Virus record (IMG/VR): IMGVR_UViG_3300037851_000865
Location: 29,232 to 93,231 of that record
Reading direction: 5' to 3' (one strand)
Length of the DNA stretch: 64,000 bases
From: a virus
Every line of letters starts with the position of its first letter. The stretch's first letter is position 1. Below the pieces are notes generated by a model, which saw only the letters and a program-made list of their open reading frames with translations, was not told the origin of the DNA and did not search any database. Below, in pieces: positions 4,004 to 25,454 of this stretch. The translations under genes were made by a program, and so were the position numbers.

Positions 4004-4961
4004 ACAACTACCTAAGAATACGCTGGTGAAGGAAGGTGCCTCGCCTCTGGGTCTGGGACAGCGCGCCCTCGCCGCAGGCGGCCTTGGTGGTGTGGGTCTG
4101 GGTATCGGCGGGCTTGCGGGCGCACTCCTCGGAGGGGTGCGGGGTGCGCGCCGTGCGAAGGAAGAAGGCACCTCTGGTGTCTCCGGCGCTCTTCGTGGAG
4201 CTCTGGGGGGCGCCTCCAAGGGGGCTCTTCTCGGGGGGCTCGGAGGAGCGGTCGTTGGCGGTTTGGGCGGAAAAGCCACGCAGCAACTTTCTTCTAGCTT
4301 GGGCGGTGATGTTGGGGCGTTGGGCGCATTCAACCGTTTTGGTCAGCGCCAGGCCTATAGCCTGACTGGCGCTCTTCCCGAGGGAATGAGTGCCGCGAAA
4401 GGCAAGAAACTGCTTGGGCTGGGGCAGGCAAGTGGTCTGCGTGAGCAGGCTGCTCGCGAGGCCAGCACCGGTGCCAGCAAGGAGCAGGTGAGTAAGCTGC
4501 TTCGTGCCGCGAAAGCACACGCCGCTGCCGAGAACATGGGGCTAGACAACGTGCCGGGCTTCTTCAAGTCCCTGGCGTCTAAGCCGGCTGACACCCTCAA
4601 GACTCTTGCTGCTAAGGAGTGGCACGGCAGCCCCTCTGTCGCAGGGAAACTTTTGACCGTGGGCCTGCCTGCGGCAGCGCTCGCTGGTGACGCTTTTGGT
4701 CCTACAGGAGAAGGACGCACCAGGGCAGGTAACATCCTAGGTGGTGCTGGGTCTGCTCTTGGGTTTATGGCACCACTGCCTCTTGCGGGACAGGCAGTCG
4801 CTTCCGGTCTTTTAGGCGGTGCCGGTCGTCGCATGGGTAATCTCATCGGTCCCAAAGGCGCACGCCCCGCAAACCCGGGCCCCGAGCCTGAGCTTTCAGG
4901 AACTGAGTCGACCAGCGCTCCGCACGTCTACTCGCAACGTATGACTGGAGACTTCGCATGA
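3996..4961 (+). CDS. Gly/Ala-rich protein with several glycine-zipper hydrophobic segments; putative internal/ejection protein
   Basis: GLGGVGLGIGGLAGALLGG, GALLGGLGGAVVGGLGG, ILGGAGSALG...; GTG start; directly upstream of portal. Confidence 0.7.
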   Translation: MAEQLPKNTLVKEGASPLGLGQRALAAGGLGGVGLGIGGLAGALLGGVRGARRAKEEGTSGVSGALRGALGGASKGALLGGLGGAVVGGLGGKATQQLSSSLGGDVGALGAFNRFGQRQAYSLTGALPEGMSAAKGKKLLGLGQASGLREQAAREASTGASKEQVSKLLRAAKAHAAAENMGLDNVPGFFKSLASKPADTLKTLAAKEWHGSPSVAGKLLTVGLPAAALAGDAFGPTGEGRTRAGNILGGAGSALGFMAPLPLAGQAVASGLLGGAGRRMGNLIGPKGARPANPGPEPELSGTESTSAPHVYSQRMTGDFA

Positions 4962-7039
4962 GCTTCTGTGGTTTTGGCGCTGGGCCTGGCGGCACTTCTC
5001 TCGGCGGCCCTGCTGTTACGCGGGGGCGCATTCAGGGCAGTATGGGTGCGGTCAACTACCCGAACCCTTTCTTTGACATCGCGCACACGTACCTGCCGAC
5101 GACCGTCAAGGAGCTCTTCAAGTACTGCCGTTACTACTTTCTCACGAACCCGCTCATCAACGCGACGGTGTTCAAGCTGAGTGAGTACCCGGTCACCGAC
5201 ATCATCATCGACCACGAGAACGGTGAGGTGAAGAAGCGTTGGGAGGAGTACTTCCACGACCATCTGCAGTTCCGCCCTTTCCAGGTGGAGTGCGGGCTCG
5301 ACTACAACACATATGGCAACTGTATGGTCAGTCTCGCGTTTCCTTTCGCGAAGCACCTGACCTGCCCGAGCTGTGGGTACACCGAGAAGGCGAAGAAGAT
5401 TCGCCAGCACTGGACGTTCACGAACTATGGGTTTCGCCTGAACTGCCCCTCTTGCGGGATGACCGACGAGGCCCGGGTTAAGGATGTCTATTACAAGAAC
5501 GCGTCCGGCATCAAGCTCATCCGGTGGAACGTCGAGGATGTGGAAATCACGTACAACGACGTGACGGGCGAGAGCACGTACTTCTACAACATCCCCGGGC
5601 CGCTCCGCAGCGACATCGTCATCGGCAAGAAGGACATCGTCGAGTCGGTGCCGCAAATCTTCATTCAGGCCCTGCGTCAGCAGAAGGGCATCGTCTTCAG
5701 CAAGGACAATCTCTTCCACATGAAGCGTCCGACGCTCGCGTGGCAAGACCGTGGGTGGGGTATTCCGCTCATCCTCCCGGTCCTGAAGGATGCCTTCTAC
5801 CTGCAGCTGATGAAGAAGGCGCAGGAAGCCATCTTGCTTGAGCACATCGTACCTCTTCGAGTGCTCTTCCCGCAGGCCGCTACAGGGACCACCGACCCCT
5901 TCACCACCATCAACCTGGTGCAGTGGAAGGAGCAGGTGGCGGCTGAGATTGGTCGCTGGCGCTACGACAACAATTACATCCCCATCATGCCGCTGCCTCT
6001 CGGCAACCAGAGCATCGGTGGTGACGGTAAAGCCCTGCTCATGTTCAACGAGATGAACATGCAGCAGGAGACACTCATCATGGGTATGGGTGTTCCGCGC
6101 GAGTTCCTTCAGGGCGGTCTAAGCTACTCAGGCACCAACGTTTCGATGCGCATGCTCGAGAACGCGTTCATTGGATACCAGCTTCGACAGAAGCTCATGG
6201 CCAACTGGATTATGAAGATGGTCGCCGGGTACATGGAGTGGACCGAAGCGACGATTCGCTTCAAGCCCTTCAAGATGGCGGACGACATTCAGCGCAAGGC
6301 GTACATGCTCCAGCTGAACCAGGCGCAGAAGATTTCCGACACGACCCTCTTGGCCGATGCTGACCTTCGTCAAGAGGACGAAGACGAAATCATGATGCGT
6401 GAGACCGCGAAGCGTCTGCAGGCGACCCGCAAGCAGCAGCTCGCGATGGCTGACGTTCAGGGCGAGGCTCAACTCATCCAGATGAAGTATCAGGCCAAAG
6501 CCCAGCAGGCGATGGCGCAGGAGCAGGGCATGCCTGCTCCCGGGGAGCCTGGAGGAGCCGAGGGTCAAATGGACCCCATGGCTGCACAGCAGCAGGCGCA
6601 GACGGCCCAGCAGCAACAGCAGGCTGCCCAACAGCAGCAGATGGCTATGCAGGCCGGCGGCGGGGCTACGCAGACTCCTAAGCAAGGCCTGCAGATGATG
6701 GGCATGCCTTCACCGGAACAAATGCTGCCGAGTGGTGGTGTGGCTGACTCGAGTCTTGGCGGTATGCCGCAAGAAGCACAGAGCCAGCTTGGTGCCGGGG
6801 CACAGGGCGGCGGCATGGACATCCAGGCGATGGCCCAGATGTACGCTCAGCAGATTGTAGGCATGGACCCGCGGGAGCAGGACATGGCGATTCAGATGCT
6901 GCAGCAGCAGTCCCCACAACTGGCTCAGTTGGTCATGCAAATTGTCATGAGCATGCAGCCTCAGCAGCAGCCAACTGGAGTAGACCAGCGTCCACTTCCG
7001 AACCAGAAGCCCGAGCGTCGAGCCGCGGCATCTGTTTAG
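4958..7039 (+). CDS. Portal protein with zinc-ribbon insertion and Gln-rich C-terminal tail
   Basis: 693 aa; portal-like pattern (NPLINATVFKLSEYP; HMKRPTLA...WGIPLILP; LIMGMGVPREFLQGG...SMRMLEN); CPSCG x2; head-gene context. Confidence 0.8.
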   Translation: MSFCGFGAGPGGTSLGGPAVTRGRIQGSMGAVNYPNPFFDIAHTYLPTTVKELFKYCRYYFLTNPLINATVFKLSEYPVTDIIIDHENGEVKKRWEEYFHDHLQFRPFQVECGLDYNTYGNCMVSLAFPFAKHLTCPSCGYTEKAKKIRQHWTFTNYGFRLNCPSCGMTDEARVKDVYYKNASGIKLIRWNVEDVEITYNDVTGESTYFYNIPGPLRSDIVIGKKDIVESVPQIFIQALRQQKGIVFSKDNLFHMKRPTLAWQDRGWGIPLILPVLKDAFYLQLMKKAQEAILLEHIVPLRVLFPQAATGTTDPFTTINLVQWKEQVAAEIGRWRYDNNYIPIMPLPLGNQSIGGDGKALLMFNEMNMQQETLIMGMGVPREFLQGGLSYSGTNVSMRMLENAFIGYQLRQKLMANWIMKMVAGYMEWTEATIRFKPFKMADDIQRKAYMLQLNQAQKISDTTLLADADLRQEDEDEIMMRETAKRLQATRKQQLAMADVQGEAQLIQMKYQAKAQQAMAQEQGMPAPGEPGGAEGQMDPMAAQQQAQTAQQQQQAAQQQQMAMQAGGGATQTPKQGLQMMGMPSPEQMLPSGGVADSSLGGMPQEAQSQLGAGAQGGGMDIQAMAQMYAQQIVGMDPREQDMAIQMLQQQSPQLAQLVMQIVMSMQPQQQPTGVDQRPLPNQKPERRAAASV

Positions 7040-7382: not shown

Positions 7383-8693
7383 TCACGGAGAATCAAACTC
7401 CTCCACCACGCCATCGTCGTTTGAGCAGATGACGTAGTGGCCCCATTTCGTAGGCCGCATGCGCCACGAGGACGGCACAATGACCCAGATGACCGGGACC
7501 CCAGGAGGCGCTCGTTCAGGCGCAGGCCCTCCACCGTCCGTCACAATCATGATGACGTTCGGCTTGGGGCGCAGCTTCTTCAGGCGCTCGAAGACAGGCC
7601 TAAAGTCGGTACCGCCTCGGCCGTGTGCCTTGATGTTCTTCAAGTCGCGTAAGGAGGTTCGCTGAAAATCTTTGACGATTTGGGTATCGCCTTGCGCCAG
7701 CAACACGTGGTCGATACCCATCTGCGCCAGTACCTCATACGTCACCTGGACACACTTCTCGAGCTCCTTGGTGCCCATGGAGCCTGATGTGTCCCAGAAC
7801 ATCGCAATCTCCGCCTTCTGGTCAATGAGACCAGGTCGAGGAATGCCCAGCAGAATGGAGCGCTTTGACTGTCGAGCCATCGAGAAGTCAGAGCCGCCAG
7901 AAAGAGCAAGGCCAGTAGTACGTCGAACGACGTGCTTCAGGTCTTTCTCCCAATTGCGCTCTTTCTTCTTCTTCGTGCTGTTCAGAAGTTCTTCCACCCA
8001 GCCAGGGGCGGTGCCTCGGCCAGCACCGCCTTGGAAGTGCTTCTTGGCCTCAGACGCTGTGATGCGCTTTGTGTTTTCCTTCTCTGCCTCTGTTCTGCCT
8101 ACTCCAGAAGCGTTGGCTGCTGCTTCTGCCTGCGCGAGGTCACTGCCTTGTCCCCCGTCGTTGCCCGCAACGGAGCCGCATTGACCAGCACAGACATCAG
8201 GCTTCTGTTTGTCCTTGTTCTTCTGCGCATTCTTCATGAGCTCTTGGAAGTAGAACTCCATGGACTCATGTCGCGGCAGGCCGTAGGAACGCGAGAAGAT
8301 TGCCCAAGACGGCAGCTCCCACTCAGCGTCAACGAGGTCATCGTTGATGGGAATGTCTGCCGCCATGTTGGCTATCTGCATGTCTATCGTCGCAAGCTCT
8401 TTGATGCGGTCCATATTTCGAAGGATGTGCATCGCTTCGTGAACAAGACCACCCGCAAGCTTGCGCGGAAGACCGTCTGAATCCAGTGTACTGAACTCAG
8501 GGTCGTCTACGAGCCGCACTGGGTCGTATAGAAAAATCATCGTGTCGGTGACAGCGATGGTCCCAAGATTCGGAACCGGCACAGGCACTAAGCTGTAAAT
8601 CAGCCGAGTGAAGTAGGGCCCCTTCTTCTTGACGTAAATACGGGCCCTCGCCAGGAGGTCGAGGGCCTTTCGTTCGTATTCTTCGGGGTTCAT
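7383..8693 (-). CDS. vWA-domain protein with N-terminal HExxH metallopeptidase-like domain (DUF2201-type)
   Basis: HEAMH motif; MIDAS-like DTSGSM; GRGGTDFRP; VTDG; adjacent to AAA+ ATPase. Confidence 0.85.
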   Translation of the reverse strand: MNPEEYERKALDLLARARIYVKKKGPYFTRLIYSLVPVPVPNLGTIAVTDTMIFLYDPVRLVDDPEFSTLDSDGLPRKLAGGLVHEAMHILRNMDRIKELATIDMQIANMAADIPINDDLVDAEWELPSWAIFSRSYGLPRHESMEFYFQELMKNAQKNKDKQKPDVCAGQCGSVAGNDGGQGSDLAQAEAAANASGVGRTEAEKENTKRITASEAKKHFQGGAGRGTAPGWVEELLNSTKKKKERNWEKDLKHVVRRTTGLALSGGSDFSMARQSKRSILLGIPRPGLIDQKAEIAMFWDTSGSMGTKELEKCVQVTYEVLAQMGIDHVLLAQGDTQIVKDFQRTSLRDLKNIKAHGRGGTDFRPVFERLKKLRPKPNVIMIVTDGGGPAPERAPPGVPVIWVIVPSSWRMRPTKWGHYVICSNDDGVVEEFDSP

Positions 8694-9889
8694 GTTGTTG
8701 CGTACTTCGCCATGACTCCAATCGTCTTCATGGCTTTCTTGGCAGCTTCAGCAGCTGCCTTGTTGGGGTTGTTGTGGTTTAGCTGCGCGACAGCAAGGTC
8801 GTGAGCAATGGGGAGGACGATGTCCTTCATACCTGCTCCGAACGTGTCGAGGACAATGCTCCATGCGTTTTCTGCAAGCGCTTGTCGCGTAACCACATCC
8901 GGGTGCGAGCAAAGCCAAGAACTCATAGAGTTCAGGGCCGTCATTGTGATGTCGAGACGCTTTGAGTCGGCAATCCAGCCATTGCGCAGCATCTCTTCCG
9001 GGTGCGGAAGGTCCGCTTTCTGGCACCACTCCACCCACTCGACTTCATGCTTTGAGCCGATGCAGCCAAAGAGCAGTTCGTTCTCGAGCTCCTTTGGCAG
9101 GTTCAGGCAGCGCACAGTCGTAATAGCGCAGGTACCGAAGTACCAGGTTCGCGGGGAAGGCCATGCCCCGCTACCTTCCTCGCTATCTGGGGTTGGCTGG
9201 TTGTGCAGCATACTCGCTCCTTGTGCTTGCACGAAACCGACCACCAACGCACGGACCTGACCCCAGTGGTGGTGCCAGTTGTCTTTCACCATCTGCTCCG
9301 CCTGCTGGAAGCTGGGAAGACTGCTCATGGAGCGTCCCATCATCCAATCTCCCCAGGTACCTACCTCAGGCTTTCCGGCATCGATGTGCACGAAGCGGTT
9401 TGCTAGGGCTGCCTCAAGGGCGAACCCGCCGGCGGCGTACTCGGGAGGGTTCATACCTGCCAGAACACGGACCTTGTTAGGCAGCTGGTGGTCTCCTACT
9501 TTTCGTTCGTCCACTAGCCCCAAGCAGGGACCCTGGACAGCGGGGCGGGCCGTCGTGAGCTCGTCGATGAAGAGTACGCCCTGTCCGGCCGCCATTAGAG
9601 CTCGAGCCTGCGGCAGGATGCACTCCAGAACGACTCCGTCCGGCGTGGGTACGATGGCACCGCCGAAGTCTTCAGGCTGCTTGTGGCTGGGGAACACCTT
9701 CTGGAAGGGCAGTCCCAAAGAACGTACCGCAGCCCCTACTCGCTGGGACTTTCCGATACCGGAGAGTCCGACAATGTTTAGAGGCAGCCCCCACCGGCAG
9801 GTGGGGGAGTTCGGTCCCATCGGGTCGAAGGGGTCGACCTGAGGTACTGAGAGTGCTGCGAGGATTTTCTGCTCGAGTGTGACAGCCAT
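8690..9889 (-). CDS. MoxR-like AAA+ ATPase
   Basis: Walker A GLSGIGKS, Walker B LFIDE, ALANRF arginine finger, PSPRTW; start moved to the ATG at 9889 (TAATG overlap). Confidence 0.9.
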   Translation of the reverse strand: MAVTLEQKILAALSVPQVDPFDPMGPNSPTCRWGLPLNIVGLSGIGKSQRVGAAVRSLGLPFQKVFPSHKQPEDFGGAIVPTPDGVVLECILPQARALMAAGQGVLFIDELTTARPAVQGPCLGLVDERKVGDHQLPNKVRVLAGMNPPEYAAGGFALEAALANRFVHIDAGKPEVGTWGDWMMGRSMSSLPSFQQAEQMVKDNWHHHWGQVRALVVGFVQAQGASMLHNQPTPDSEEGSGAWPSPRTWYFGTCAITTVRCLNLPKELENELLFGCIGSKHEVEWVEWCQKADLPHPEEMLRNGWIADSKRLDITMTALNSMSSWLCSHPDVVTRQALAENAWSIVLDTFGAGMKDIVLPIAHDLAVAQLNHNNPNKAAAEAAKKAMKTIGVMAKYATT

Positions 9890-10446
9890 TATTCGTCTTC
9901 TTCCTGTTCGTGGTCGTGGGTGCAAGGCGTTCCTGTACGCCAGTTTCTTTCGTATGTGCAAATCGGGCATTCGCCCGCGTAAGAGATGTGAGGCCACATC
10001 TCGATAACGTCCTCGTTGACGGTACGAATACACGACAAGCAGAAGAACTGCGTCATGTCCCTGTACTCTGCAAGGTGAATAGAAGGCTCCCCTTCAGGGC
10101 TTCTAGGTGAGCGGTGAAACTCCCCAGTCGTGGACATGCCTGTTGGCTCGCCGGGGCGAATGTCACTCTCACACATAACACACTTGCAGACCCCGTATGG
10201 GTCAGGTACTGGTGTGGCTCCTTCATCATCCAGGATTTCAAACAGAGTATCCTGGAGCTTTGCCCAACACCCGTCATGGTAGAAGTGCGGCTCATAGAAG
10301 AACTCACCGTTAGCTCCTGAAAAGGGTGTGACGGTAAGTCTTCCTTCGTTGTCTCGTTGTGGAAGCACTATTTGAATCAGGGTCACTATACTGGTGAATG
10401 GGAACTCTTCTTCGCAGTCCCCGCAGATGTGACCTGTGCCGTGCAT
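9889..10446 (-). CDS. Cys-rich (multi zinc-finger) hypothetical protein
   Basis: CGDC, CKCVMC, CLSC, CPIC...CTH; start placed at ATG 10446 just after the upstream stop (track start 10503). Confidence 0.7.
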   Translation of the reverse strand: MHGTGHICGDCEEEFPFTSIVTLIQIVLPQRDNEGRLTVTPFSGANGEFFYEPHFYHDGCWAKLQDTLFEILDDEGATPVPDPYGVCKCVMCESDIRPGEPTGMSTTGEFHRSPRSPEGEPSIHLAEYRDMTQFFCLSCIRTVNEDVIEMWPHISYAGECPICTYERNWRTGTPCTHDHEQEEDE

Positions 10447-11266: not shown

Positions 11267-11295
11267 TCTTATTCCGCGATATCTGCAGTACTTGC
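11267..11295 (-). promoter_or_regulatory. Candidate phage promoter GCAA-N19-ATAAGA (copy 2)
   Basis: Plus strand TCTTAT 11267-11272, 19 nt, TTGC 11292-11295. Confidence 0.65.
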
Positions 11296-11336: not shown

Positions 11337-14300
11337 ATGGCACATCTGGACCACAACGAGGCTTTCGAGGAGTTCAAGAACCGAACCCTGGAAGGAATTA
11401 AGGCCAACTTCCCCATCGAGGGGCGAGACCGTTCTCTCGTCCTGAAGGGGTTGGAGGTTGCAGATGCGGCGAACGCATCTGATGACCTCGACGAGCAGCA
11501 CAAGGCGAAGGTAGAAGGGCGCACGTTCAGTCGTCCTATCTATGCGACCGTCTCTGTCGTGGATAAGCAGACGGGTAAAGAACAAACAGAGCGCATGAAG
11601 ATTGGTGAGCTCCCTGTGCTCACCCGCCGGTACAGCTACATCGTTGGCGGGCAGGAGTACCAGGTAGACAATCAGTGGCAGCTGAAGCCCGGCATCTACA
11701 CGCAGCGCAAAGCTGACGGCTCGCTGAAGTCGGAGTTCAACATTCAGGGAAAGAAGTCTTTCAACCTGAAGTTCGAACCTGAGACCAAGCAGTTTCTCAT
11801 GGAGCGCGGCAGTTCCAAGACAATCCCCGCCTATCCCATCCTGAAGACGATGGGTATCGACGACGAAACTCTTGAGCGTCAGTGGGGGAAGGACATTCTT
11901 CAGGCGAACAGGGACTCACGCAACTCCGCTACCGCTCTGTCGCGTTTCTACAAGGCCGACAAGAAGCGCATGCCCGCGGACACCACAACTGCTTCGACGT
12001 ACGTACGCCAGACGCTGCTCGGTTCTCAGGTACGCGCGGACGCCGTAGAGAAAACGCTCGGGCGCAACACGTCGACCGTAGACGGTGACATTCTTCTGCG
12101 GGCTACCAAGCGCATGCTGGACATTCAGGGAGGTGCTCCTGAGGATGACCGCGACAGTCTTGTGTTCAAAGACCTGCGCTCTGTTGGTGACTACGCGTAT
12201 GACAAGCTGACAGACTGGCGCACACAGAGCATGATTCGCACGAAGATTCAGCGGCAGCTCAACAGCGCAAAGGCCACCTCTCCTCGAGACATCCTCCGTA
12301 CGGCTTCTTTTGGACAGCCCATCATGGCGACGTTCAAGAAGAACTCAGCCGCGCGCACCGCCGACCAAATCAATCCGGTTGAGATGCTTGCGTCTTCGAT
12401 GCAGACCACTGTGATGGGCCCTGGTGGTATTCAGTCGGAGCACGGCATCACCCCTGAGGTGAAGTACATCAATCCGTCGCACTTTGGGTTCCTCGACCCA
12501 CTTCACACACCAGAGGGTGGAAAGACCGGCGTAACCCTTCATTTGCCTATGGGTGTGAAGAAGGTCGGAAAAGAGCCCCGAATTCCGGTATATAATTTGA
12601 AAACGGGCAAGAAAGAACTTATCGGTCCGGCGGCATTTATGTCGTCGTCGGTTGCGCTCCCTGACCAGATGAAGTGGGACGACAAGGGCCGACCTGTGCC
12701 TGTCGCTGCCAAAATCAAAGTCTCTTCAAAGGACAATGAGATTGAAGAGGTCTCGTCCAAAGACGTGCAGTACGCGATGTATCACCCGTCGCAGGCGTTC
12801 TCTTTGACCTCGAACCTAATCCCCTTCATGGGCAACACCTCGGGTAACCGCGCCAGCTACGCGACTCACCACATTGAGCAGGCTATCTCGCTAGCGGACC
12901 GGGATGTGCCGCTTATTCAGGCGGGTACTGGCGTAGGCAGAGGCGGCATCAAGAGCTTCGAAGAGTTTGTTGGACGTAACTCTGCACATACAACTCCTGT
13001 TGCAGGTGTTGTTGTGAAGGCGGACAAGCAGCACGGTATTGTGGTCAAAGACGACAAAGGGCAGACCCACAAGGTTCCGCTGTACAACAACTTCCCGCTG
13101 AACGATGCCAAGGCGGTTCTGGACTCCACGCCCATTGTAAAGCCAGGTGACCACGTTCGTGCGGGGCAGGTGGTGGGCGATACAAACTTCACAAAGGGCG
13201 GCAGTCTCGCGCTCGGGAAGAATCTTCGAGTCGGCTACATCCCCTACAAGGGCTACAACTTTGAAGACGGCGTGGTCATCAGCGAGTCGGCCGCGGACGC
13301 TCTCAAGAGCGTGCACATGCACAAGCCGAGCATGAAGCTGCAGCCTACGGACACGACCGATGTCAAGAAGTTCACAGCGCAACATCCTGAGGCTTTCAGG
13401 AAAGAACAGCTACAGAAGGTAGGTGCCGACGGCATTGTTCAGGTAGGTCAGCGCATCAACCCTGGTGACCCGCTTGTGTTGGCGATGAGGCCGCTCAACA
13501 TCAACGACCAGTCTGGTATCGCGCGTGTGCGTAAGAGCTTGTCTGGTCAGCAGACTGACGCGTCTTTGCGCTGGGACAAGGACTACGCCGGCGAAGTTGT
13601 AGGCGTGCACCAGAACAAGAAGGGCGAGGTCACTGTCCACGTAAAGACCATCGAGCCCATGACGGTCGGCGATAAAATCACAGGTCGCTACGGCAACAAG
13701 GGTATCGTCACAAAGGTCATCCCTGACGCTGAAATGCCTCGAACAAAGGACGGACAGCCCATTCAGGTGGCTCTCAATCCCGCTGGCATCCCAGGCCGTA
13801 TGAACGTTGGTCAGGTGCTTGAAACGGCCCTGTCCAAGGTCGCGCGCAAGACCGGGCAGCCCATCATCGTGAACAACTTCGAGTACGGAGTTGACCAACT
13901 TGAGAAGGCCAAAGAAGAACTGAAGAAGCATGGTCTCGAGGACAAGGAAGAGCTCATTGACCCGAAGACCGGCTTGTCTCTCGGCAAAGTGCTCGTCGGC
14001 GAGCAGCACATGCTCAAGCTTCAGCATCAGGTAGACAAGAAGGTCTCGGTCAGAAGCGGTATGGCGCTGCGTGGTGAAGAGGCTGAAGGTTACGACAACA
14101 ACCTCATCCCTAAGGGTGGCGGCAAGGCCGGTGCGCAGTCGATGGGTAACCTCGGCATGAACGTCCTGCTTGCTCACGGAGCCACCGCGAACATCCGCGA
14201 GATGCAGACCTGGAAGTCTCAGGGAGAGGACCCCGCGCCCGAGCACAAGCGCTGGAGGTCTCAACACAACGACGTGTGGAACGCCATTCAGACTGGCGCT

Positions 14301-17300
14301 CCCCTTCCTGCACCCAAGCCTACGTTCGCCTTCCAGAAGTTCACCGACATGCTCAAGGCGTCGGGCATCAACGTAGAGAAGAAGGGCAACAAGATTCAGC
14401 TCACGCCTCTCACCGACAAAGAAATCGAAGCTATGTCTTCGGGCGAGCTGTCTAACCCAAGCCGCCTCACGTACGCGAAGACGGACAAAGATGGGCAGCT
14501 GAAGCCCATCAAGGGTGGCTTGTTCGATGAGGCCAAGACTGGTGGCGTTCACGGGAAGAAGTGGGCTCACTTCAGCCTGGCGGAGCCCATGCCGAATCCC
14601 ATCTTTGAGGAACCTATCAAGAAGGTTCTGGGGATGAACAAGAACCAGTTCGCCGATGTGGTGAACGGGGACAAGGCTATCGACCCCAAGACGGGGCAGG
14701 TTGTGGCTCTCGGAAAAGGGTTGTCTGGTGGTGCCGGCATCGCTGCTGCTCTGAAGAACGTTGATGTGGCCAAGGAGCTCGAGCTTGCAAAGAAAGAGCT
14801 TGAGGCCGTGAAGATTTCTCCTGACTTTGCTCACGGAGCAAATACGCAGAAGCTCGACACGGCCCTCAAGAGGGTGAAGTACTTGAGTGTTCTGCAGGAC
14901 AAGGGCATTCGTGCTGACGAGGCTTACGTGCTCACGAAGCTTCCGGTCATTCCTCCAGCGATGCGCCAGCCGAGCATCATGAACGACGGCAATGTTCGCT
15001 GGGAGGACATCAACGGCCTCTACAAGAGCTTCGCCGAGGTCAACGATAAGCTCAAGGAGCTCAAGGGCTACGAGAGTATCGGCATCGGGGATGCGGACAT
15101 GAAGGTGCCGCGCCAGGGCATGTACGACGGACTCCGCGCACTGGTTGGCGTTGGGCAAAGCGCCGCGGAGCGTGATGAGGACAAGCCGAAGGGTATCCTT
15201 CGTATGATTCACGGAAGTATCCCGAAGGAGGGTTACTTCCAGAAGACGCTCATGTCGCGCAAGCAGGACATGACGATGCGCTCTACCATCGTGCCTGAGC
15301 CTGCCATGAACCTGGACGATGTCGGTGTTCCAGCTGCCAAGGCACTCACGTTGTTCCGTCCGTTCGTAATCAAGAAGATGACTGACATGGGCGTGGCGCA
15401 GACCCCACTTCAGGCACAGGAGATGCTTCGAGACAAGAATGCCATCAAGAATCAAGGCATCTTCAAGGCCCTTGAGGCCGTCACGGCAGAGCGGCCTCTA
15501 CTGATGAAGCGAGACCCCGCGCTGCACATGCACAGTATCCAGGCCTTCAACGCACGACCGGTTAAAGGCAACGCCATCAAGATTCACCCCCTCGTCGTGG
15601 GCGGGTACAACGCAGACTTCGACGGCGACACAATGAGCATGTACGTGCCTATCAGCAACGAGGCCGTAGAGGAGGCGCGCGGCATGATGCCGAGTCGCAA
15701 CCTGTTCAACGCGGCCTCGGGGCATGTGGCCCATGCTCCTTCTCTCGAGAGCTCGCTCGGTCTGTACAAGATGACACAAGTCCAGGGCTCGGGAAGCAAG
15801 TCTTTCAAGAGTGCGGGAGATGCCATGAAGGCAGTACAAGCAGGCAAGCTCAGCATCGACGAGCTTGCTAACATCAGCGGGTACGGGAAGACTACTGCTG
15901 GCCGTGTTCTTCTTGCGGACGCTCTCCCTAAGTCGATGCAGGACAAGATGCTGCATGACCATTCCTTTGTGATGAACAAGAAGGGTGTGAATCAGCTGTA
16001 TGGGGACCTTGCAAAGAACCACCCGGATAGTTTTGCTGATGCAGCAAATCGTCTGAAGGATTACGGCTTTGATGCCTCGTACGGCCAGGTGCGTCTCAAG
16101 CACCCGACTATACACGTGGGTCAGGGCGCTATTGATGCAGCAGAGCAGGGAAAGTTTGCTGTGCTTCCTATTGGGTCGCACAGCCTCGGGCTCGATGACC
16201 TCGCCCCGGACAAGGCCGTTCGTGACAAGATTGTCAATGCGACCCAGCGCCGTGTCGACATGGTGAACCGCTCCAATCTGACGAAGAGCCAGAAGGAGGC
16301 TCGTGCGGTGGAAGAGTGGACCAAGGCTACTGCCGAGATGCAGAAGGCGCACGTCGAGTCCGCCAAGAAGAAGCCTGACAACTTGTTCAAGATGTACGAC
16401 GCAGGCATTAAGCCGGGCATGTCTCAGTACCAGCAGCTGAAGCTTGCCCCGATGCTGCTCGAAGACGCGTCTGGTCGAACCATCCCCATGCCTGTCACGA
16501 AGTCGTACTCTGAAGGTCTCGATATGGCGGGTTACTGGATTCAGTCCAGCGGTGCTCGTAAGGGCTCTATCCAGAAGGTGCAGGAGGTCCAGGACCCTGG
16601 CTACTTCTCGAAGCAGCTCATCAACACGGCCATGAACCTGCAGATTCGCGACGAGGACTGCGGCACGCAGCGCGGCGTTGGTCTTTCTGTCTCAGATAAG
16701 GATGTCTATGACCGAGAACTTGCGTCCGACCTGAAGGTAAAAGGACGTACGTTTGCGAAGGGTACTGTTCTTTCTCCTGATGTGGTCGGGCAGATTCGCA
16801 AGCTCGACAAGGGTGCACAGGTCGTTGTCCGTTCCTCTTTGAAATGCGAGCACGGCAAGGGTCTATGCCAGCACTGTGCAGGTATCAGCCCCACCGGGAA
16901 GTATTACGACGTCGGTACTAACCTCGGTATCTTGTCGGCGCAGTCTCTTGGTGAGCGCTCTGTTCAGCTCGCTTTGAAGGCATTCCACTCTGGTGGTGTG
17001 AAGTCTACCGGCGGGGCTGGTGTGCTCGGCGCTTTTGACCGCACAAAGCAGCTCACGGCACTGCCGAAGAAGATTCCTGACGCAGCCTCCTTGGCTATGA
17101 CCTCGGGTAAGATTGAGAAGGTGCAGGAGGACCGGACCGGCACCAACATCTGGATTGCTGGGCAGAAGCACTTTGTACCCAAGGACCGCGCAGGCCGTAC
17201 CTTGACGACGACGCTTCCTGGCGTGGCGCCTCCTGGCTGGGCTCCACCGAAGGTGGGTGCGTTCGTAGAGGCGGGACAGTCCCTCAGCGACCCGACACGT

Positions 17301-17816
17301 TCTTTCGTGAACCCGCACGACCTATACAAGGCGACGAGGAACATCGAAAAGGTTCAGAACTTTCTCACGAACGAGCTTCACGGCATCTACAAGGATGAAG
17401 GTGTTCGACGGCAGCACATCGAGACGGTTGTGAAGGCACTGAGCAACACTTCTCGCGTACGTAGCCCTGGAGATGCTCAGAACATCCTTCGAGGAGAGTA
17501 TCAGCCTACGTCTCAGATGCGGGCCCTGAACGCAGAGCTCACAAAGGCTGGCAAGCGCCCTGTGAGCTATTCCCCTATTTTGAAGGGTGTCGATGTGGCG
17601 CCCTTGACGGTTCACGATGACTGGATGGCGAAGCTGAATTACGCGCAGCTCACCAAGACGTTGACGGAAGCCGCGGCAGAAGGTTCTATCTCCGACCTGC
17701 ATGGTATGCACCCGGTTCCAGGAGCAGCCTACGGGGCAGAGTTCGGTATCGCGAAGAAACACAAAGACCCCTTCGCGCCACCCCATATCAAGAACCTTCC
17801 AACGTGGTCGTACTGA
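11337..17816 (+). CDS. rpoBC: Fused beta-beta' multisubunit-type DNA-directed RNA polymerase (2159 aa)
   Basis: Beta motifs GYNFEDG, GDKITGRYGNKG, LNPAGIPGRMNVGQ; beta' motifs LPVIPP, catalytic NADFDGD (15609-15629), bridge helix GARKG...GY, CEHGKGLCQHC, trigger loop AQSLGE...AFHSGG. Confidence 0.97.
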   Translation: MAHLDHNEAFEEFKNRTLEGIKANFPIEGRDRSLVLKGLEVADAANASDDLDEQHKAKVEGRTFSRPIYATVSVVDKQTGKEQTERMKIGELPVLTRRYSYIVGGQEYQVDNQWQLKPGIYTQRKADGSLKSEFNIQGKKSFNLKFEPETKQFLMERGSSKTIPAYPILKTMGIDDETLERQWGKDILQANRDSRNSATALSRFYKADKKRMPADTTTASTYVRQTLLGSQVRADAVEKTLGRNTSTVDGDILLRATKRMLDIQGGAPEDDRDSLVFKDLRSVGDYAYDKLTDWRTQSMIRTKIQRQLNSAKATSPRDILRTASFGQPIMATFKKNSAARTADQINPVEMLASSMQTTVMGPGGIQSEHGITPEVKYINPSHFGFLDPLHTPEGGKTGVTLHLPMGVKKVGKEPRIPVYNLKTGKKELIGPAAFMSSSVALPDQMKWDDKGRPVPVAAKIKVSSKDNEIEEVSSKDVQYAMYHPSQAFSLTSNLIPFMGNTSGNRASYATHHIEQAISLADRDVPLIQAGTGVGRGGIKSFEEFVGRNSAHTTPVAGVVVKADKQHGIVVKDDKGQTHKVPLYNNFPLNDAKAVLDSTPIVKPGDHVRAGQVVGDTNFTKGGSLALGKNLRVGYIPYKGYNFEDGVVISESAADALKSVHMHKPSMKLQPTDTTDVKKFTAQHPEAFRKEQLQKVGADGIVQVGQRINPGDPLVLAMRPLNINDQSGIARVRKSLSGQQTDASLRWDKDYAGEVVGVHQNKKGEVTVHVKTIEPMTVGDKITGRYGNKGIVTKVIPDAEMPRTKDGQPIQVALNPAGIPGRMNVGQVLETALSKVARKTGQPIIVNNFEYGVDQLEKAKEELKKHGLEDKEELIDPKTGLSLGKVLVGEQHMLKLQHQVDKKVSVRSGMALRGEEAEGYDNNLIPKGGGKAGAQSMGNLGMNVLLAHGATANIREMQTWKSQGEDPAPEHKRWRSQHNDVWNAIQTGAPLPAPKPTFAFQKFTDMLKASGINVEKKGNKIQLTPLTDKEIEAMSSGELSNPSRLTYAKTDKDGQLKPIKGGLFDEAKTGGVHGKKWAHFSLAEPMPNPIFEEPIKKVLGMNKNQFADVVNGDKAIDPKTGQVVALGKGLSGGAGIAAALKNVDVAKELELAKKELEAVKISPDFAHGANTQKLDTALKRVKYLSVLQDKGIRADEAYVLTKLPVIPPAMRQPSIMNDGNVRWEDINGLYKSFAEVNDKLKELKGYESIGIGDADMKVPRQGMYDGLRALVGVGQSAAERDEDKPKGILRMIHGSIPKEGYFQKTLMSRKQDMTMRSTIVPEPAMNLDDVGVPAAKALTLFRPFVIKKMTDMGVAQTPLQAQEMLRDKNAIKNQGIFKALEAVTAERPLLMKRDPALHMHSIQAFNARPVKGNAIKIHPLVVGGYNADFDGDTMSMYVPISNEAVEEARGMMPSRNLFNAASGHVAHAPSLESSLGLYKMTQVQGSGSKSFKSAGDAMKAVQAGKLSIDELANISGYGKTTAGRVLLADALPKSMQDKMLHDHSFVMNKKGVNQLYGDLAKNHPDSFADAANRLKDYGFDASYGQVRLKHPTIHVGQGAIDAAEQGKFAVLPIGSHSLGLDDLAPDKAVRDKIVNATQRRVDMVNRSNLTKSQKEARAVEEWTKATAEMQKAHVESAKKKPDNLFKMYDAGIKPGMSQYQQLKLAPMLLEDASGRTIPMPVTKSYSEGLDMAGYWIQSSGARKGSIQKVQEVQDPGYFSKQLINTAMNLQIRDEDCGTQRGVGLSVSDKDVYDRELASDLKVKGRTFAKGTVLSPDVVGQIRKLDKGAQVVVRSSLKCEHGKGLCQHCAGISPTGKYYDVGTNLGILSAQSLGERSVQLALKAFHSGGVKSTGGAGVLGAFDRTKQLTALPKKIPDAASLAMTSGKIEKVQEDRTGTNIWIAGQKHFVPKDRAGRTLTTTLPGVAPPGWAPPKVGAFVEAGQSLSDPTRSFVNPHDLYKATRNIEKVQNFLTNELHGIYKDEGVRRQHIETVVKALSNTSRVRSPGDAQNILRGEYQPTSQMRALNAELTKAGKRPVSYSPILKGVDVAPLTVHDDWMAKLNYAQLTKTLTEAAAEGSISDLHGMHPVPGAAYGAEFGIAKKHKDPFAPPHIKNLPTWSY

Positions 17817-19091
17817 ATGGCAGTCAAAGGAATCTCAGAGGGGCATTTCAACCCCTTCAACTGGACAAGCTTTGCGCGTACTGGTTGGACGCAGCCAGAG
17901 GGCATGGTCCCGGCACACGTCGTGGAGGCGCGCGTATTCAACGTCAACCTCCCTAACTGGACCATCGATGTTCAGTCTGTGTTTGACCAGCGGACTATGC
18001 TCGACGTCCAGGTGGGTCAGCCCTACCTGCATTCGACGGGTGGCGAGGGCAGCTATTGCGTCCCGGAGGTGGGCGCGAAGTGCCAGGTACTCATTCCTTC
18101 AGATGGCTCTCCTCCGTGTGTCCTCTGCTTCATCATGCCGATGGAGACGCTAGAAGACACCAGCACTCCTGAGGCCCCTGCTGGAACGGCTCCTCGAGGA
18201 GGAACAGAGGGCGGGTCCAAGGATTACTCGTTCTCTGGAGGACGTCAGCGGCCAAAGCCTGGCGACATCATCAGCAAAGGCAGGGACGGTAACTTCATGA
18301 TTCTGCACCGAGGTGGTGTGGCGCAGTTTGGTGCCAGTCCTTTGGCGCAGCGTATTTGTATTCCGCTGAACAATCTGGTGACGGACATCAGCCAGAACTA
18401 CAACCACTACAACGGTAGCGGCTCTGTGAACTGGGGTGTGCAGGACAGAGGAAGCAAGAACCCGACAGGTGAGTATCGGCACACTCAGCGCATATACGCC
18501 AACGACGCGTACGCAGATATTCGCTTCGCAATGGGGTATGTACGTAGCCCTGTGCCCGAGCCTACAGGGGACGCCGGTGAGACGTCGAACTTGAATCAGC
18601 TTAACATCGGCACGAATGCCGATACTGTGTTTGAGTTTGTTCTGTCAAAGGACGGCTTTGAGACTGACGCCGGTGAGTTCCACGCCACGGCTGGTGATGT
18701 GAAAATTCGTATGTTCTTCGACCGTAACGGTAGCGCGATGGCGCGCTTTGAGGGGTCTGTAGACCTTCGCATCAAAAAGAAGCTCCGAATCACTATCGAC
18801 GACAATGCTGACATCTTCGGGAAGAAAACCATCACCATCGACGCCAAAGACGCATTAAAGCTGTTTGGCGGAAGTCTTGCAGAGCTAGGTACTGCTGGCG
18901 GGAACGTTGTACTCAACGGGGGCTCAAAGGCTGTGGCATTCGTTGGTTCCCGTGTACAGGTAGCAATTACTCCCCCAGGAATCATTGCACAGGCTATTGT
19001 TCCACCGACACCTACACCACAACCAATCACCATCATGGCGGGTGTCTTTGAGGGTGTAGTACTCTCAGGCAATCCAACCATTCTAGTCTGA
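17817..19091 (+). CDS. Baseplate central spike-like protein (gpV/gp5 OB-fold type)
   Basis: N-terminal OB-fold-like segment ending PEVGAKCQV, then beta-rich repeats and GNVVLNGG...VAFVG at the C-terminus; ATG abuts the RNAP stop. Confidence 0.6.
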   Translation: MAVKGISEGHFNPFNWTSFARTGWTQPEGMVPAHVVEARVFNVNLPNWTIDVQSVFDQRTMLDVQVGQPYLHSTGGEGSYCVPEVGAKCQVLIPSDGSPPCVLCFIMPMETLEDTSTPEAPAGTAPRGGTEGGSKDYSFSGGRQRPKPGDIISKGRDGNFMILHRGGVAQFGASPLAQRICIPLNNLVTDISQNYNHYNGSGSVNWGVQDRGSKNPTGEYRHTQRIYANDAYADIRFAMGYVRSPVPEPTGDAGETSNLNQLNIGTNADTVFEFVLSKDGFETDAGEFHATAGDVKIRMFFDRNGSAMARFEGSVDLRIKKKLRITIDDNADIFGKKTITIDAKDALKLFGGSLAELGTAGGNVVLNGGSKAVAFVGSRVQVAITPPGIIAQAIVPPTPTPQPITIMAGVFEGVVLSGNPTILV

Positions 19092-23391: not shown

Positions 23392-23647
23392 ACTCTAGGC
23401 GGTACGCTGGAAAACTAATCTGGTCTACCTCCCACCCACTTTCCCTCATGTACTGACGCACGTAGCCCCTGACGAAGGGGCGTGCCTCTCTGGCTATCTT
23501 TGAACGCAATCGAAACGCCGCATGGTCTCCCTCTTCTGTGCTCCATACAGCAGTCTGTCCTGTCAGGTTGTCGTTTGCGCGCTCGAGCGACTCTCCAAGT
23601 CTGTGAAGAGTAGCTTCGATATCGCTGCAGAGTTCGGGAGGGTACAT
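23279..23647 (-). CDS. Possible small leftward ORF (122 aa)
   Basis: MYPPELCSDIEATLHRLGE...FVRGYVRQYMRESGWEVDQISF; fills an otherwise empty 255-nt gap, but has no RBS and overlaps the 3' end of the convergent gene. Confidence 0.35.
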   Translation of the reverse strand: MYPPELCSDIEATLHRLGESLERANDNLTGQTAVWSTEEGDHAAFRLRSKIAREARPFVRGYVRQYMRESGWEVDQISFPAYRLEFTFRWVGKARSPSSEERPREASAGPSKKQNRGRQTTS

Positions 23648-25454
23648 GGGAGCTGCTGAACAACTGTACGACGAAGACGACTGGGACGATACCTGGGACG
23701 AGACATCGACCTGGAATCCGGAAAGTCCGATAGTCGAAGACGAGCGTCTCCTACAGAAGAAGCAGAAACAGCTCAAAGCATTGCCGGCTTTGAAGCCGTC
23801 ACAGTTCACGTCATACGCGTTCTGGATGCCTAAGACAGAGCGTGGCGTCACCGAGGAGGGCGAGGAATACGAACGGGTCGTCATGGACCGGTTTACCTTC
23901 GACGGTCGCCGGCACATGATTCGCCCCTACGATACGCCAGCGAAGCGCTTGCTTCTGTTCTGCGGTCGTCAGGTGGAGAAGTCCACGCTGCTGGGCAACA
24001 TCATGCTCAGCTACATGTGCCTAGTTAGTGGGTACAGGGCTCTGTACGTCTCGCCGTCGATGACGCAGACCAAGACGTTCAGCTCTGACCGTATTCGTGA
24101 GCCCATGGAGACAAGCCCTGTCTTGTCTAAGTTCACGACAACGATGCTCTCGCAGAACATTCTCGAGAAGCAGCTTGTCAACCGCAGTAAGCTAACGCTG
24201 CGCTACGCGTACCTGAACGCCGACCGCACGCGCGGTATCCCGGCGTACTTGCTGGCCATCGATGAGTTTCAGGACATCCTGCAGGACAACGTTCCTGTCA
24301 TGCAGCAGTGCTTGTCTCACGCACCGCAGTCGCTGAAGCGGGAGATTTACTCAGGCACGCCCAAGTCCTTGGACAATCACCTTGAGTACTACAGGGCCAA
24401 CCTCAGCACGCAGGGGGAATGGGTTGTTCCCTGCAATGCCTGTAACCACTGGAACGTCCTGGGCGAGAAGAACATCGGCAAGAACTGGCTGTGTTGCGAG
24501 AAGTGCGGCAAGCAAATCAACCCGATGGACGAACGGGCCCAATGGGCCAACATGGTGAAGGGCGATGTTCCGTGGGAGAGCTACCGCATCCCTCAGCTGA
24601 TGGTTCCGTGGCTGAACTGGAAGAAGGACATCCTTTACAACTACGAGAACTACTCTCGAGAGAAGTTCTACAACGAGGTCCTGGGCATCAGTTACGACTC
24701 AGGGCTGCGACCGCTTACAACCCAACAGCTCAAGGATGTCTGCAATCCAGACGTCACCATGATGGAGCTTGGGTGGTACAAAGAACAGAGCCACGCGCAG
24801 CCCATTTACGCCGGATTGGATTGGGGGACCGGAGAGCACTCGTACACGCTCCTGACGCTCGGCACCTACGTGGGTATGAAGTTCCGCGTTTTCTACGCGC
24901 ATCGCTTCACCGGCGAAGAGATTGACCCTGAAGTACAGATAAAGAAAATCATCGAGATTCTTCGGTACTTCAATGTGAAGTTCGTAGGCTCTGATTACGG
25001 CGGAGGCTTCAATCAGAACTACATCCTCGCCAAGACGTTCGGAGCACTCAAGCTCAAGAAGTTCCAGTATCTGGCTCGCAGCTCCGGCGGCAAGGTGAAG
25101 TGGGACCCCAAGTTACTTCGGTACAAGGTGTCCCGCACAGAGGTGATGAGCGACGTCTTCAACGCCGTGAAACAAGGCAAGCTCGAGTTCCCCAAGTGGG
25201 ATGAGTGGCACGACCCGTACGGCCAGGACATGCTCAACATCTACAGCGAGCACAACGCTCAGCTGAACATGATTCAGTACAAGCACGGTGTGGATAAGCC
25301 GGACGACACCATGCATTCGGTCTTGTACTGCTTCCTGGCTTCCATGTTCGACTACCCGCGTCCCGACATCATCACGCCAGATACGGAAGACCAGCACGGT
25401 CGTCGGCGAGAGAACTGGCCCGGTCCTATTGACCAAGGCGGGACCTACTACTGA
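23646..25454 (+). CDS. terL: Terminase large subunit (gpA-like, with zinc finger)
   Basis: Walker A variant GRQVEKS, Walker B AIDEFQD, IYSGTPK, CNAC...CEKC, nuclease motif YAGLDWG; GGAGG RBS. Confidence 0.92.
   Translation: MGAAEQLYDEDDWDDTWDETSTWNPESPIVEDERLLQKKQKQLKALPALKPSQFTSYAFWMPKTERGVTEEGEEYERVVMDRFTFDGRRHMIRPYDTPAKRLLLFCGRQVEKSTLLGNIMLSYMCLVSGYRALYVSPSMTQTKTFSSDRIREPMETSPVLSKFTTTMLSQNILEKQLVNRSKLTLRYAYLNADRTRGIPAYLLAIDEFQDILQDNVPVMQQCLSHAPQSLKREIYSGTPKSLDNHLEYYRANLSTQGEWVVPCNACNHWNVLGEKNIGKNWLCCEKCGKQINPMDERAQWANMVKGDVPWESYRIPQLMVPWLNWKKDILYNYENYSREKFYNEVLGISYDSGLRPLTTQQLKDVCNPDVTMMELGWYKEQSHAQPIYAGLDWGTGEHSYTLLTLGTYVGMKFRVFYAHRFTGEEIDPEVQIKKIIEILRYFNVKFVGSDYGGGFNQNYILAKTFGALKLKKFQYLARSSGGKVKWDPKLLRYKVSRTEVMSDVFNAVKQGKLEFPKWDEWHDPYGQDMLNIYSEHNAQLNMIQYKHGVDKPDDTMHSVLYCFLASMFDYPRPDIITPDTEDQHGRRRENWPGPIDQGGTYY

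Follow-up and report, generated by a model that had tools for sequence, protein, structure and literature searches.

A single-chain beta-beta' RNA polymerase gene in the morphogenesis region of a large uncultured freshwater phage

The virus record IMGVR_UViG_3300037851_000865 (175,761 bp, estimated to be 94% complete) derives from a large uncultured freshwater phage, and we analysed a stretch of 64,000 nucleotides of this record (positions 29,232 to 93,231), which is called the window throughout. On the plus strand of the window, a single open reading frame (ORF) of 2159 amino acids (aa) unites the beta and the beta' subunit of a bacterial-type RNA polymerase (RNAP) in one chain with a predicted molecular mass of 240 kDa. 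The elements of this gene are given below in window coordinates. Motif positions were obtained by alignment to Salmonella RpoB and RpoC and follow E. coli numbering where E. coli residues are named.

11337..17816, plus strand: fused RNA polymerase beta-beta' ORF, 2159 aa, ATG start, uninterrupted
11337..14375, plus strand: beta module, aa 1-1013, maps to E. coli beta 30-1334, SI1 and SI2 absent
13251..13271, plus strand: beta GYNFEDG, aa 639-645, with E643/D644 (alignment; D644 invariant in alignment A5)
13668..13703, plus strand: beta GDKITGRYGNKG with the active-site lysines K780 and K788 (alignment; invariant in alignment A5)
14364..14402, plus strand: junction GINVE/KKGNKIQL, free of gaps in 108 sequences and the same in Arash gp206 and Vibrio D69 gp261
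14376..17816, plus strand: beta' module, aa 1014-2159, SI3 absent
14532..14558, plus strand: AKTGGVHGK in place of the beta' N-terminal Zn ribbon (E. coli 65-96; alignment)
15009..15155, plus strand: beta' clamp helices (coiled coil), aligned to E. coli 265-310
15609..15629, plus strand: beta' NADFDGD, catalytic Mg site, aa 1425-1431 (alignment)
16524..16634, plus strand: bridge helix, aa 1730-1766 (alignment)
16659..16877, plus strand: second Zn site, C1775/C1837/C1844/C1847 (alignment)
16917..17075, plus strand: trigger loop, aa 1861-1913, lacking the SI3 insert and carrying the FHSGG motif (alignment)

The preliminary description of this DNA had read complete beta motifs followed by complete beta' motifs including NADFDGD in a single ORF, and the ORF call, the alignment and the order of the Pfam domains bear this out. 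Rpb2_3 (aa 341-403) and Rpb2_6 (aa 557-907, E 5e-61) are followed by the beta' domains Rpb1_1 (aa 1016-1243), Rpb1_2 (aa 1309-1451, E 1e-25) and Rpb1_5 (aa 1727-2046, E 1e-21), and bacterial beta' subunits were the best PDB matches of the chain (E 5e-104). Both active-site lysines, which sit in GDK..GRYGNKG, and the ED pair of the beta double-psi barrel are present, and the motif equivalent to beta H897 (MLKLQH) was found by alignment. As to the two zinc sites of beta', the C-terminal site is kept with its four cysteines and the N-terminal Zn ribbon is deleted. The chain had also been called much shorter than the E. coli subunits, and this is correct: it has 2159 aa versus 2749 aa for E. coli beta plus beta'. 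Most of the deficit of 590 residues corresponds to the missing inserts SI1 (E. coli beta 226-347), SI2 (beta 937-1048) and SI3 (beta' 945-1130), and the remainder to the beta' Zn ribbon and a few smaller segments. Because the catalytic motifs are kept and the deficit concerns mainly lineage-specific inserts, the enzyme is, as judged by alignment, compact yet complete with all catalytic elements intact. Rifampicin cluster I (window 12336-12419, aa 334-361) is heavily substituted, with R/T/S/Q/T at the positions equivalent to Q513/F514/H526/R529/S531. Therefore, the enzyme is probably insensitive to rifampicin. At the C-terminus (window 17787-17813) the last residue is tyrosine in 138 of 152 family members, and the chain usually ends aromatic/His-x-Tyr. 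This conserved aromatic terminus might act as a signal in packaging or docking.

In cellular enzymes the C-terminus of beta and the N-terminus of beta' adjoin each other. In the phage protein, the peptide SGINVEKKGNKIQL (aa 1009-1022, nucleotides 14361-14402) marks the point where the two meet. The preliminary description had taken it for a short linker, but by the alignment it is no added linker; the truncated termini meet seamlessly. The beta end ...ASGINVE matches E. coli ...SLGINIELEDE and runs directly into beta' at about residue 15-19, and the beta' start KKGNKIQLTPLTDKEI corresponds to E. coli EEFDAIKIALASPDMI (...EEFDAIKIAL). At the junction, the subunits have together lost about 18 terminal residues and nothing is inserted. 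In 108 family members that are free of inteins, the segment aa 976-1050 aligns without gaps at about 75% conservation.

The fusion is not confined to this phage. A word-indexed search of 5.8 billion proteins yielded at least 120 protein clusters of 2124-2675 aa with 51-100% identity that carry both domain sets, on contigs of up to 200 kb. An exhaustive HMMER search yielded at least 150 clusters at 50% identity (E < 1e-153), 110 of them with 2000 aa or more; these representatives all belonged to the family and provided no outgroup. In IMG/VR we found 67 loci with 38-62% identity, and every locus that holds the whole gene has it as one uninterrupted ORF, either of 2054-2173 aa or, where extra sequence is inserted, of 2515-3008 aa. 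Many RNAP genes of the family contain large insertions, which bring the protein to 2400-4739 aa (P0034, P0036, P0045, P0202 and others, with the loci L043-L045, L059, L063 and L074), and 66 of the 150 best representatives at 50% identity are longer than 2220 aa. For several of these long relatives, the precomputed Pfam domains include Intein_splicing, LAGLIDADG_2 or LAGLIDADG_3.

Metagenomic contigs always leave the general possibility that a cellular rpoB-rpoC gene sits on a mis-binned or chimeric contig, or that an assembly or frameshift error has joined two genes. Here, that general possibility is all that speaks for such an origin, and we regard it as extremely improbable. Logan contigs of two freshwater metagenome runs, which may be the source samples and were made with a different assembler, cover positions 13300-15300 with zero differences. 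The check for an assembly artefact thus found the fusion uninterrupted in more than 100 clusters, in the 67 IMG/VR loci and in two independent Logan assemblies. The cellular reading was rejected in view of the 175.8-kb virus genome, in which genes for portal, terminase, capsid and tail surround the ORF, and more than 150 independent clusters share the fusion. By these comparisons, the fusion is genuine and of ancient date, and selection acts on it in a very large phage clade with genomes of about 175-195 kb.

The ancestry of the two halves points in the same direction. A scan of GTDB species genomes revealed only ordinary rpoC genes with 25-30% identity, and no member of the fused family was found in it. 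In the beta' tree (60 rows, 957 columns, LG+C20 with posterior mean site frequencies, quick search), 31 bacteria fall on one side of a branch (support in the Shimodaira-Hasegawa-like approximate likelihood ratio test, SH-aLRT, 99). The fused family forms a clade with the phages Arash and D69 (98), and the cultured phages RHph_TM30, Va2 and RP13, which have separate subunits, form another group (98). The beta tree is congruent, with the same split (bacteria 100) and the same nearest relatives. Since the two trees agree, both halves share one history. The phylogenetic check envisaged in the preliminary description thus placed both halves outside all bacteria sampled (Helicobacter and Wolbachia sequences are absent from both trees), and the gene lacks ribosomal-protein synteny. 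In the beta tree, Arash and D69 fall inside the fused family, which suggests that the division of their beta' may be secondary.

Arash (Gp206 and Gp216, sigma Gp10) and the Vibrio phages D69, D148 and D181 are the closest cultured relatives (about 30% identity). Arash and D69 resemble the fused family in belonging to the same clade in both trees, in the loss of the same Zn ribbon, in an identical junction and in a homologous sigma factor (Arash Gp10), and their RNAP likewise lies after the portal gene and before a Gp218-like gene and head genes. As the junction is identical, the beta-beta' fusion predates the divergence of these clades. The difference is a cut of beta' at about residue 1505, which gives beta plus the N-terminal part of beta' (1525-1527 aa) and a separate C-terminal part of beta' (beta'C, 606-609 aa). 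These pieces are separated by small ORFs, by a homing endonuclease (D148, D181) or by about 4.8 kb. The cut near residue 1505 is absent here: the gene is a single ORF in this genome and in the IMG/VR loci with the whole gene. Arash has in addition a second sigma factor (gp196) and an SNF2 helicase (gp217), neither of which was found in this genome. The latter gene (L005:1261-2679) encodes an SNF2-family protein directly after beta'C, and in virions it was detected with 38 peptides and 1148 spectra, about as strongly as the RNAP pieces. The Arash enzyme was published as separate 'beta' and 'beta''; the records annotate Gp206 as 'beta', and the paper does not mention the fusion (PMC10585845).

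Other systems share single traits with this enzyme. The phiKZ and AR9 enzymes are also phage two-barrel RNAPs that are related to beta and beta' and lack alpha and omega, and one of the two RNAP sets of these phages is packaged in the virion for early transcription (PMC7598289). They differ in consisting of four to five polypeptides, in being far more diverged from the bacterial enzymes, in having two paralogous sets per genome and in using specificity subunits that are not sigma factors, whereas the enzyme described here comes as one set and one chain, with strong Pfam and PDB matches to bacterial beta and beta' and a partner of the sigma-70 family. The mReC Caudovirales (Weinheimer and Aylward 2020) are tailed phages known from metagenomes, whose beta and beta' branch deeply and align readily (PMC7481178), but they are a different group. 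In all entries of Supplementary Dataset 2 that were considered, beta and beta' are two separate proteins of about 900-1500 aa each, and the mReC capsid and terminase belong to PF07068 (T4-like) and PF03237 (PMC7481178); here, the large terminase belongs to PF05876 and the capsid protein has no Pfam match. Cobetia phage Carin-5 (L009) has two RNAP genes, both annotated 'beta', the first of which is beta'-like (1083 aa) and the second beta-like (927 aa); this order is the reverse of the bacterial one, and an annotated sigma factor lies directly upstream. Among cellular enzymes, RpoB and RpoC are naturally fused in Helicobacter and Wolbachia and have been fused by engineering in E. coli; in these single polypeptides the beta C-terminus is likewise joined to the beta' N-terminus, and they show that this topology is compatible with activity. 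The two natural fusions are cellular genes in ribosomal-protein operons and work with an alpha dimer and omega. The phage fusion differs from them by its place in a morphogenesis region, by its position outside bacterial diversity and by the removal of terminal residues rather than the addition of a linker. In size, the chain resembles crAss-like phi14:2 gp66 and the N4 enzyme, which are also very large single chains that are packed into the capsid and ejected for early genes. In the crAss enzyme, which is of the two-barrel kind, no sequence similarity to COG0085/COG0086 is detectable, and the N4 enzyme is T7-like; for neither is the use of a sigma-70-type factor reported in the literature consulted.

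The preliminary description had recognised no alpha, omega or sigma gene. This is correct for the window, and for alpha and omega it extends to the whole genome, but a sigma gene lies elsewhere in the record (the whole phage genome that holds the window is called G000).

G000:112456-113262, outside the window: divergent sigma-70-family factor, 268 aa, Arash Gp10 homologue

The 268-aa protein matches Arash Gp10 (phmmer E 1e-12), which carries Sigma70_r3 (E 9e-9). Some of its 36 homologues have precomputed Sigma70_r3 or r4 domains or the Joint Genome Institute (JGI) name 'specialized sigma subunit', and the family profile matches about 60 solved sigma factors (E down to 4e-8). The AlphaFold 2 (AF2) model of the protein has a predicted local distance difference test score (pLDDT) of 84.8, and its top 50 fold matches are all sigma factors. 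A homologue is present in five of five related genomes. The usual docking site of sigma region 2 is formed by the beta' clamp helices. When the factor was modelled with a clamp-helix fragment of the phage chain, the complex prediction scored 0.55, compared with 0.00 for the best control, and the verdict was 'weak support'. The mark of this test is passed by 58 of 80 solved complexes and by 2 of 110 mismatches, and scores of 0.60 or below comprise seven of the 80 solved complexes and both passing mismatches. The runs agreed in at least 47% of the contacts, and the partner pLDDT was at least 68. Just upstream of the sigma gene (G000:96819-110251, plus strand), a run of genes encodes proteins of 1012, 589, 1066, 612, 153 and 950 aa, for which the databases hold hardly any match. 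Cysteine is absent from the proteins of 1012 and 612 aa, and the 589-aa protein resembles the Arash virion protein gp6. These proteins, encoded beside the sigma gene as are Arash gp4-gp17, are candidate ejection or internal head proteins.

For alpha, PF01000 gave nothing above chance in the phage genome and PF01193 likewise in five genomes; for omega, PF01192 gave nothing above chance in the five phage genomes. All 14 control genomes gave a signal in both cases. Each genome examined has a single RNAP gene, that is, one ORF with Rpb1_2. The search for a T7-like RNAP (PF00940) was uninformative, since its controls gave no signal. The fused chain may have no subunit partner of its own besides sigma. 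It could also assemble with the alpha dimer of the host, and perhaps with omega, after synthesis or ejection. The natural fusion in Helicobacter and the engineered one in E. coli work with an alpha dimer, and the phage chain is of the bacterial type throughout and retains the parts that align with E. coli beta 1058-1297 and beta' 1201-1348. Moreover, a phage substitute for alpha was not recognised with the Pfam profiles in the phage genomes searched. On the other hand, identities of 25-30% to any bacterial enzyme make conserved docking to the alpha subunits of many hosts doubtful, and waiting for host alpha would be awkward for an enzyme that acts at once on ejected DNA. In addition, the multisubunit RNAPs of phiKZ and AR9 work without alpha (PMC7598289). 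We consider assembly with host alpha a serious possibility that nevertheless falls short of an even chance.

The surroundings of the RNAP gene are as follows (window coordinates).

4958..7039, plus strand: portal-like protein, homologue of Arash gp204 (annotated portal; tblastn 32% identity, E 9e-86), in 59 related loci
7383-10033, minus strand: pair of a DUF2201 protein (metallopeptidase-like plus VWA) and a MoxR-like AAA_5 ATPase, between portal and RNAP, in 32-33 related loci
11267..11295, minus strand: promoter-like motif copy GCAA-N19-ATAAGA, pointing away from the RNAP gene and into the DUF2201/MoxR-like pair
17817..19091, plus strand: gp5/gpV-like central spike gene, 424 aa, its ATG abutting the RNAP stop
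Between the 424-aa spike gene and the large terminase: proteins of 217, 726, 313 and 155 aa
19752..21932, plus strand: 726-aa protein, probable homologue of Arash virion protein Gp218 and D69 gp266 (hhalign 76.6%, E 2e-5, 537 columns), in 55 related loci
23646..25454, plus strand: large terminase subunit (Pfam GpA_ATPase, E 6.5e-10), homologue of Arash gp1
33810-34931: homologue of the major capsid protein, followed by tail genes

PHROGs and Pfam gave nothing for most neighbours of the RNAP gene. The portal candidate takes its identity from the Arash gene annotated as portal, and a single-sequence PDB search with it found nothing. For the 424-aa protein, the family profile (31 homologues) has matches to central spikes, among them the beta-helix of T4 gp5 (E 4e-4 to 2e-3), and Atlas features indicate Phage_base_V/Gp5_OB. 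Foldseek with its AF2 model (pLDDT 68.8) gave no match at E <= 0.001 and only weak spike, VgrG and baseplate matches, so that the assignment as a spike rests on the sequence profile and the Atlas features. For the 726-aa protein, homology to Gp218 of the Arash virion is probable; an Atlas search with it was uninformative. When the 424-, 217-, 313- and 155-aa families were compared by hhalign with the Arash and D69 genes downstream of beta'C, none exceeded 50% probability. The gene order is kept in a relative with 70% identity, and the same genes recur beside the RNAP gene in most related IMG/VR loci. By this comparison of loci, the RNAP gene holds a conserved position inside the morphogenesis region. 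It had been described as embedded in a virion gene cluster, with its stop codon abutting the ATG of a spike-like gene; both statements hold, as the stop ends at 17816 and the next ATG starts at 17817, and the order portal, RNAP, gp5-like spike, Gp218-like protein and terminase is kept across the clade. Outside the window, ARAGORN detected a phage tmRNA (tag ANDNASAVLALAS) at L087:3687-4062 (plus strand; G000:156918-157293) beside tRNA-Gln and tRNA-Thr, and tRNA-Ile and tRNA-Glu lie at L086:2144-2336.

The motif copy in front of the DUF2201/MoxR-like pair belongs to a bipartite motif, RCAA-N19-ATAAGA (often ...GGN-ATAAGA), which occurs 12 times in the whole genome, 11 times on the minus strand. 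Four relatives have 6, 9, 1 and 5 copies, and the reversed control over the five genomes gave 0, 0, 0, 0 and 2. It can be seen that the motif lies mostly on the strand opposite to the RNAP gene. The minus-strand genes include those for RecA-like, DnaB-like and PD-(D/E)XK nuclease proteins; the RNAP and sigma genes lie on the plus strand with the structural genes, without the motif that precedes the replication genes. A scan for sigma-70-type promoters around the RNAP gene stayed at the level of shuffled sequence, and k-mer enrichment of upstream regions gave no late-promoter motif. A motif that persists among phages with RNAPs of only 42-62% identity is in keeping with recognition by a conserved phage holoenzyme.

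Evidence on packaging comes from Arash. In virions purified by sucrose gradient, mass spectrometry detected Gp206 most strongly of all proteins (128 unique peptides, 3516 spectra), Gp216 with 40 peptides and 1210 spectra, and sigma Gp10 with 24 peptides and 467 spectra (PMC10585845). The composition of the fused chain is in line with this. The RNAP has four cysteines in 2159 aa (0.19%), exactly the Zn ligands, as compared with 1.35% in the proteome and 2.2% in the minus-strand genes, and the sigma factor has none. Exactly four cysteines were counted in 109 of 151 RNAP family members. Such a cysteine-poor composition resembles that of particle proteins rather than of cytoplasmic proteins. Packaging would also suit the location of the RNAP and sigma genes with the structural genes, opposite to the replication genes that the motif precedes. 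Probably, then, the virion contains the polymerase and infection begins with it.

Taken together, these data suggest the following sequence of events. The single chain would pair with the phage sigma factor to a two-protein holoenzyme; both proteins would be made late, together with the structural proteins, and packed into the capsid. Ejected with the DNA, the holoenzyme would then start transcription of the early and replication genes on the opposite strand at GCAA-N19-ATAAGA promoters. Early transcription would thus be independent of host RNA polymerase and probably insensitive to rifampicin. A compact single-chain core that is carried in the capsid with a phage sigma factor and starts early transcription is the best explanation of the whole, and we lean towards it with modest confidence. 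The more far-reaching statement, that one chain and a small sigma factor without alpha and omega are the complete capsid-packed transcription machine of a widespread clade of phages of about 180 kb and read their own promoters, we put forward only tentatively.

Several observations weigh against this explanation. Phage sigma factors commonly redirect the host core enzyme, and the phage sigma factor could serve host RNAP instead. The complex prediction is a weak pass and may reflect memory of solved sigma-core complexes. The motif loosely resembles a -35/-10 layout that host holoenzyme could read. The absence of alpha and omega refers to Pfam profiles, and a very divergent scaffold protein may be present among the unannotated ORFs. 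Cysteine depletion and gene position are circumstantial, and the sequence was not found in any RNA run. As to ancestry, the trees combine a quick search and long branches with a bacterial sample skewed towards Actinomycetota and Bacillota, with a few further phyla. The Arash RNAP is only about 31% identical to the fused chain, and of the 116 proteins on the Arash 'virion' list some are evidently cytoplasmic enzymes (ribonucleotide reductases, a kinase, a primase), so that an abundant RNAP may have been carried over, as the authors themselves allow (PMC10585845).

If the Arash signal is indeed carry-over, the polymerase could be a non-virion enzyme, synthesised in the infected cell, that serves the middle or late genes with or without the sigma factor, while host RNAP reads the early genes; the -35/-10-like layout of the motif would suit such a division of labour as well. 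We judge this scenario less likely. An enzyme that appears only late could contribute little to the cycle in which it is made, and the RNAP and sigma genes lie on the structural strand without the motif of the replication genes. Furthermore, over 38-76% identity the RNAP gene keeps its place between portal and spike/terminase, cysteine depletion is extreme in both RNAP and sigma, and there is one RNAP per genome, unlike the pairs of virion and non-virion RNAPs in phiKZ-like phages. The capsid-borne single chain with its phage sigma factor remains the explanation that we prefer.

Phage RNAPs of the multisubunit type, virion RNAPs and cellular beta-beta' fusions are already known. A published description of a single-chain bacterial-type form in phages, or of its sigma partner, was not found in our search, which left most subscription journals outside. 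According to the common view, cellular-type RNAPs require an alpha (or alpha-like) dimer as assembly platform, and the phage versions known so far break beta and beta' into more pieces, not fewer. For the phage clade, which is large and almost uncultured, with Arash and the Vibrio D69 group as the only cultured outliers found, the family is a good phylogenetic marker. As a natural and abundant minimal system with simple genetics, the enzyme could help to show how the core assembles, how sigma docks and how promoters are recognised in the absence of the Zn ribbon, and it would allow the packing and ejection of a 240-kDa enzyme to be studied. It could also serve synthetic biology as a one-gene, probably rifampicin-insensitive, orthogonal polymerase of the multisubunit type. 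If our explanation is true, this would be the simplest bacterial-type RNA polymerase known and a natural experiment on why alpha is required, and early infection by these phages would be independent of host RNA polymerase.

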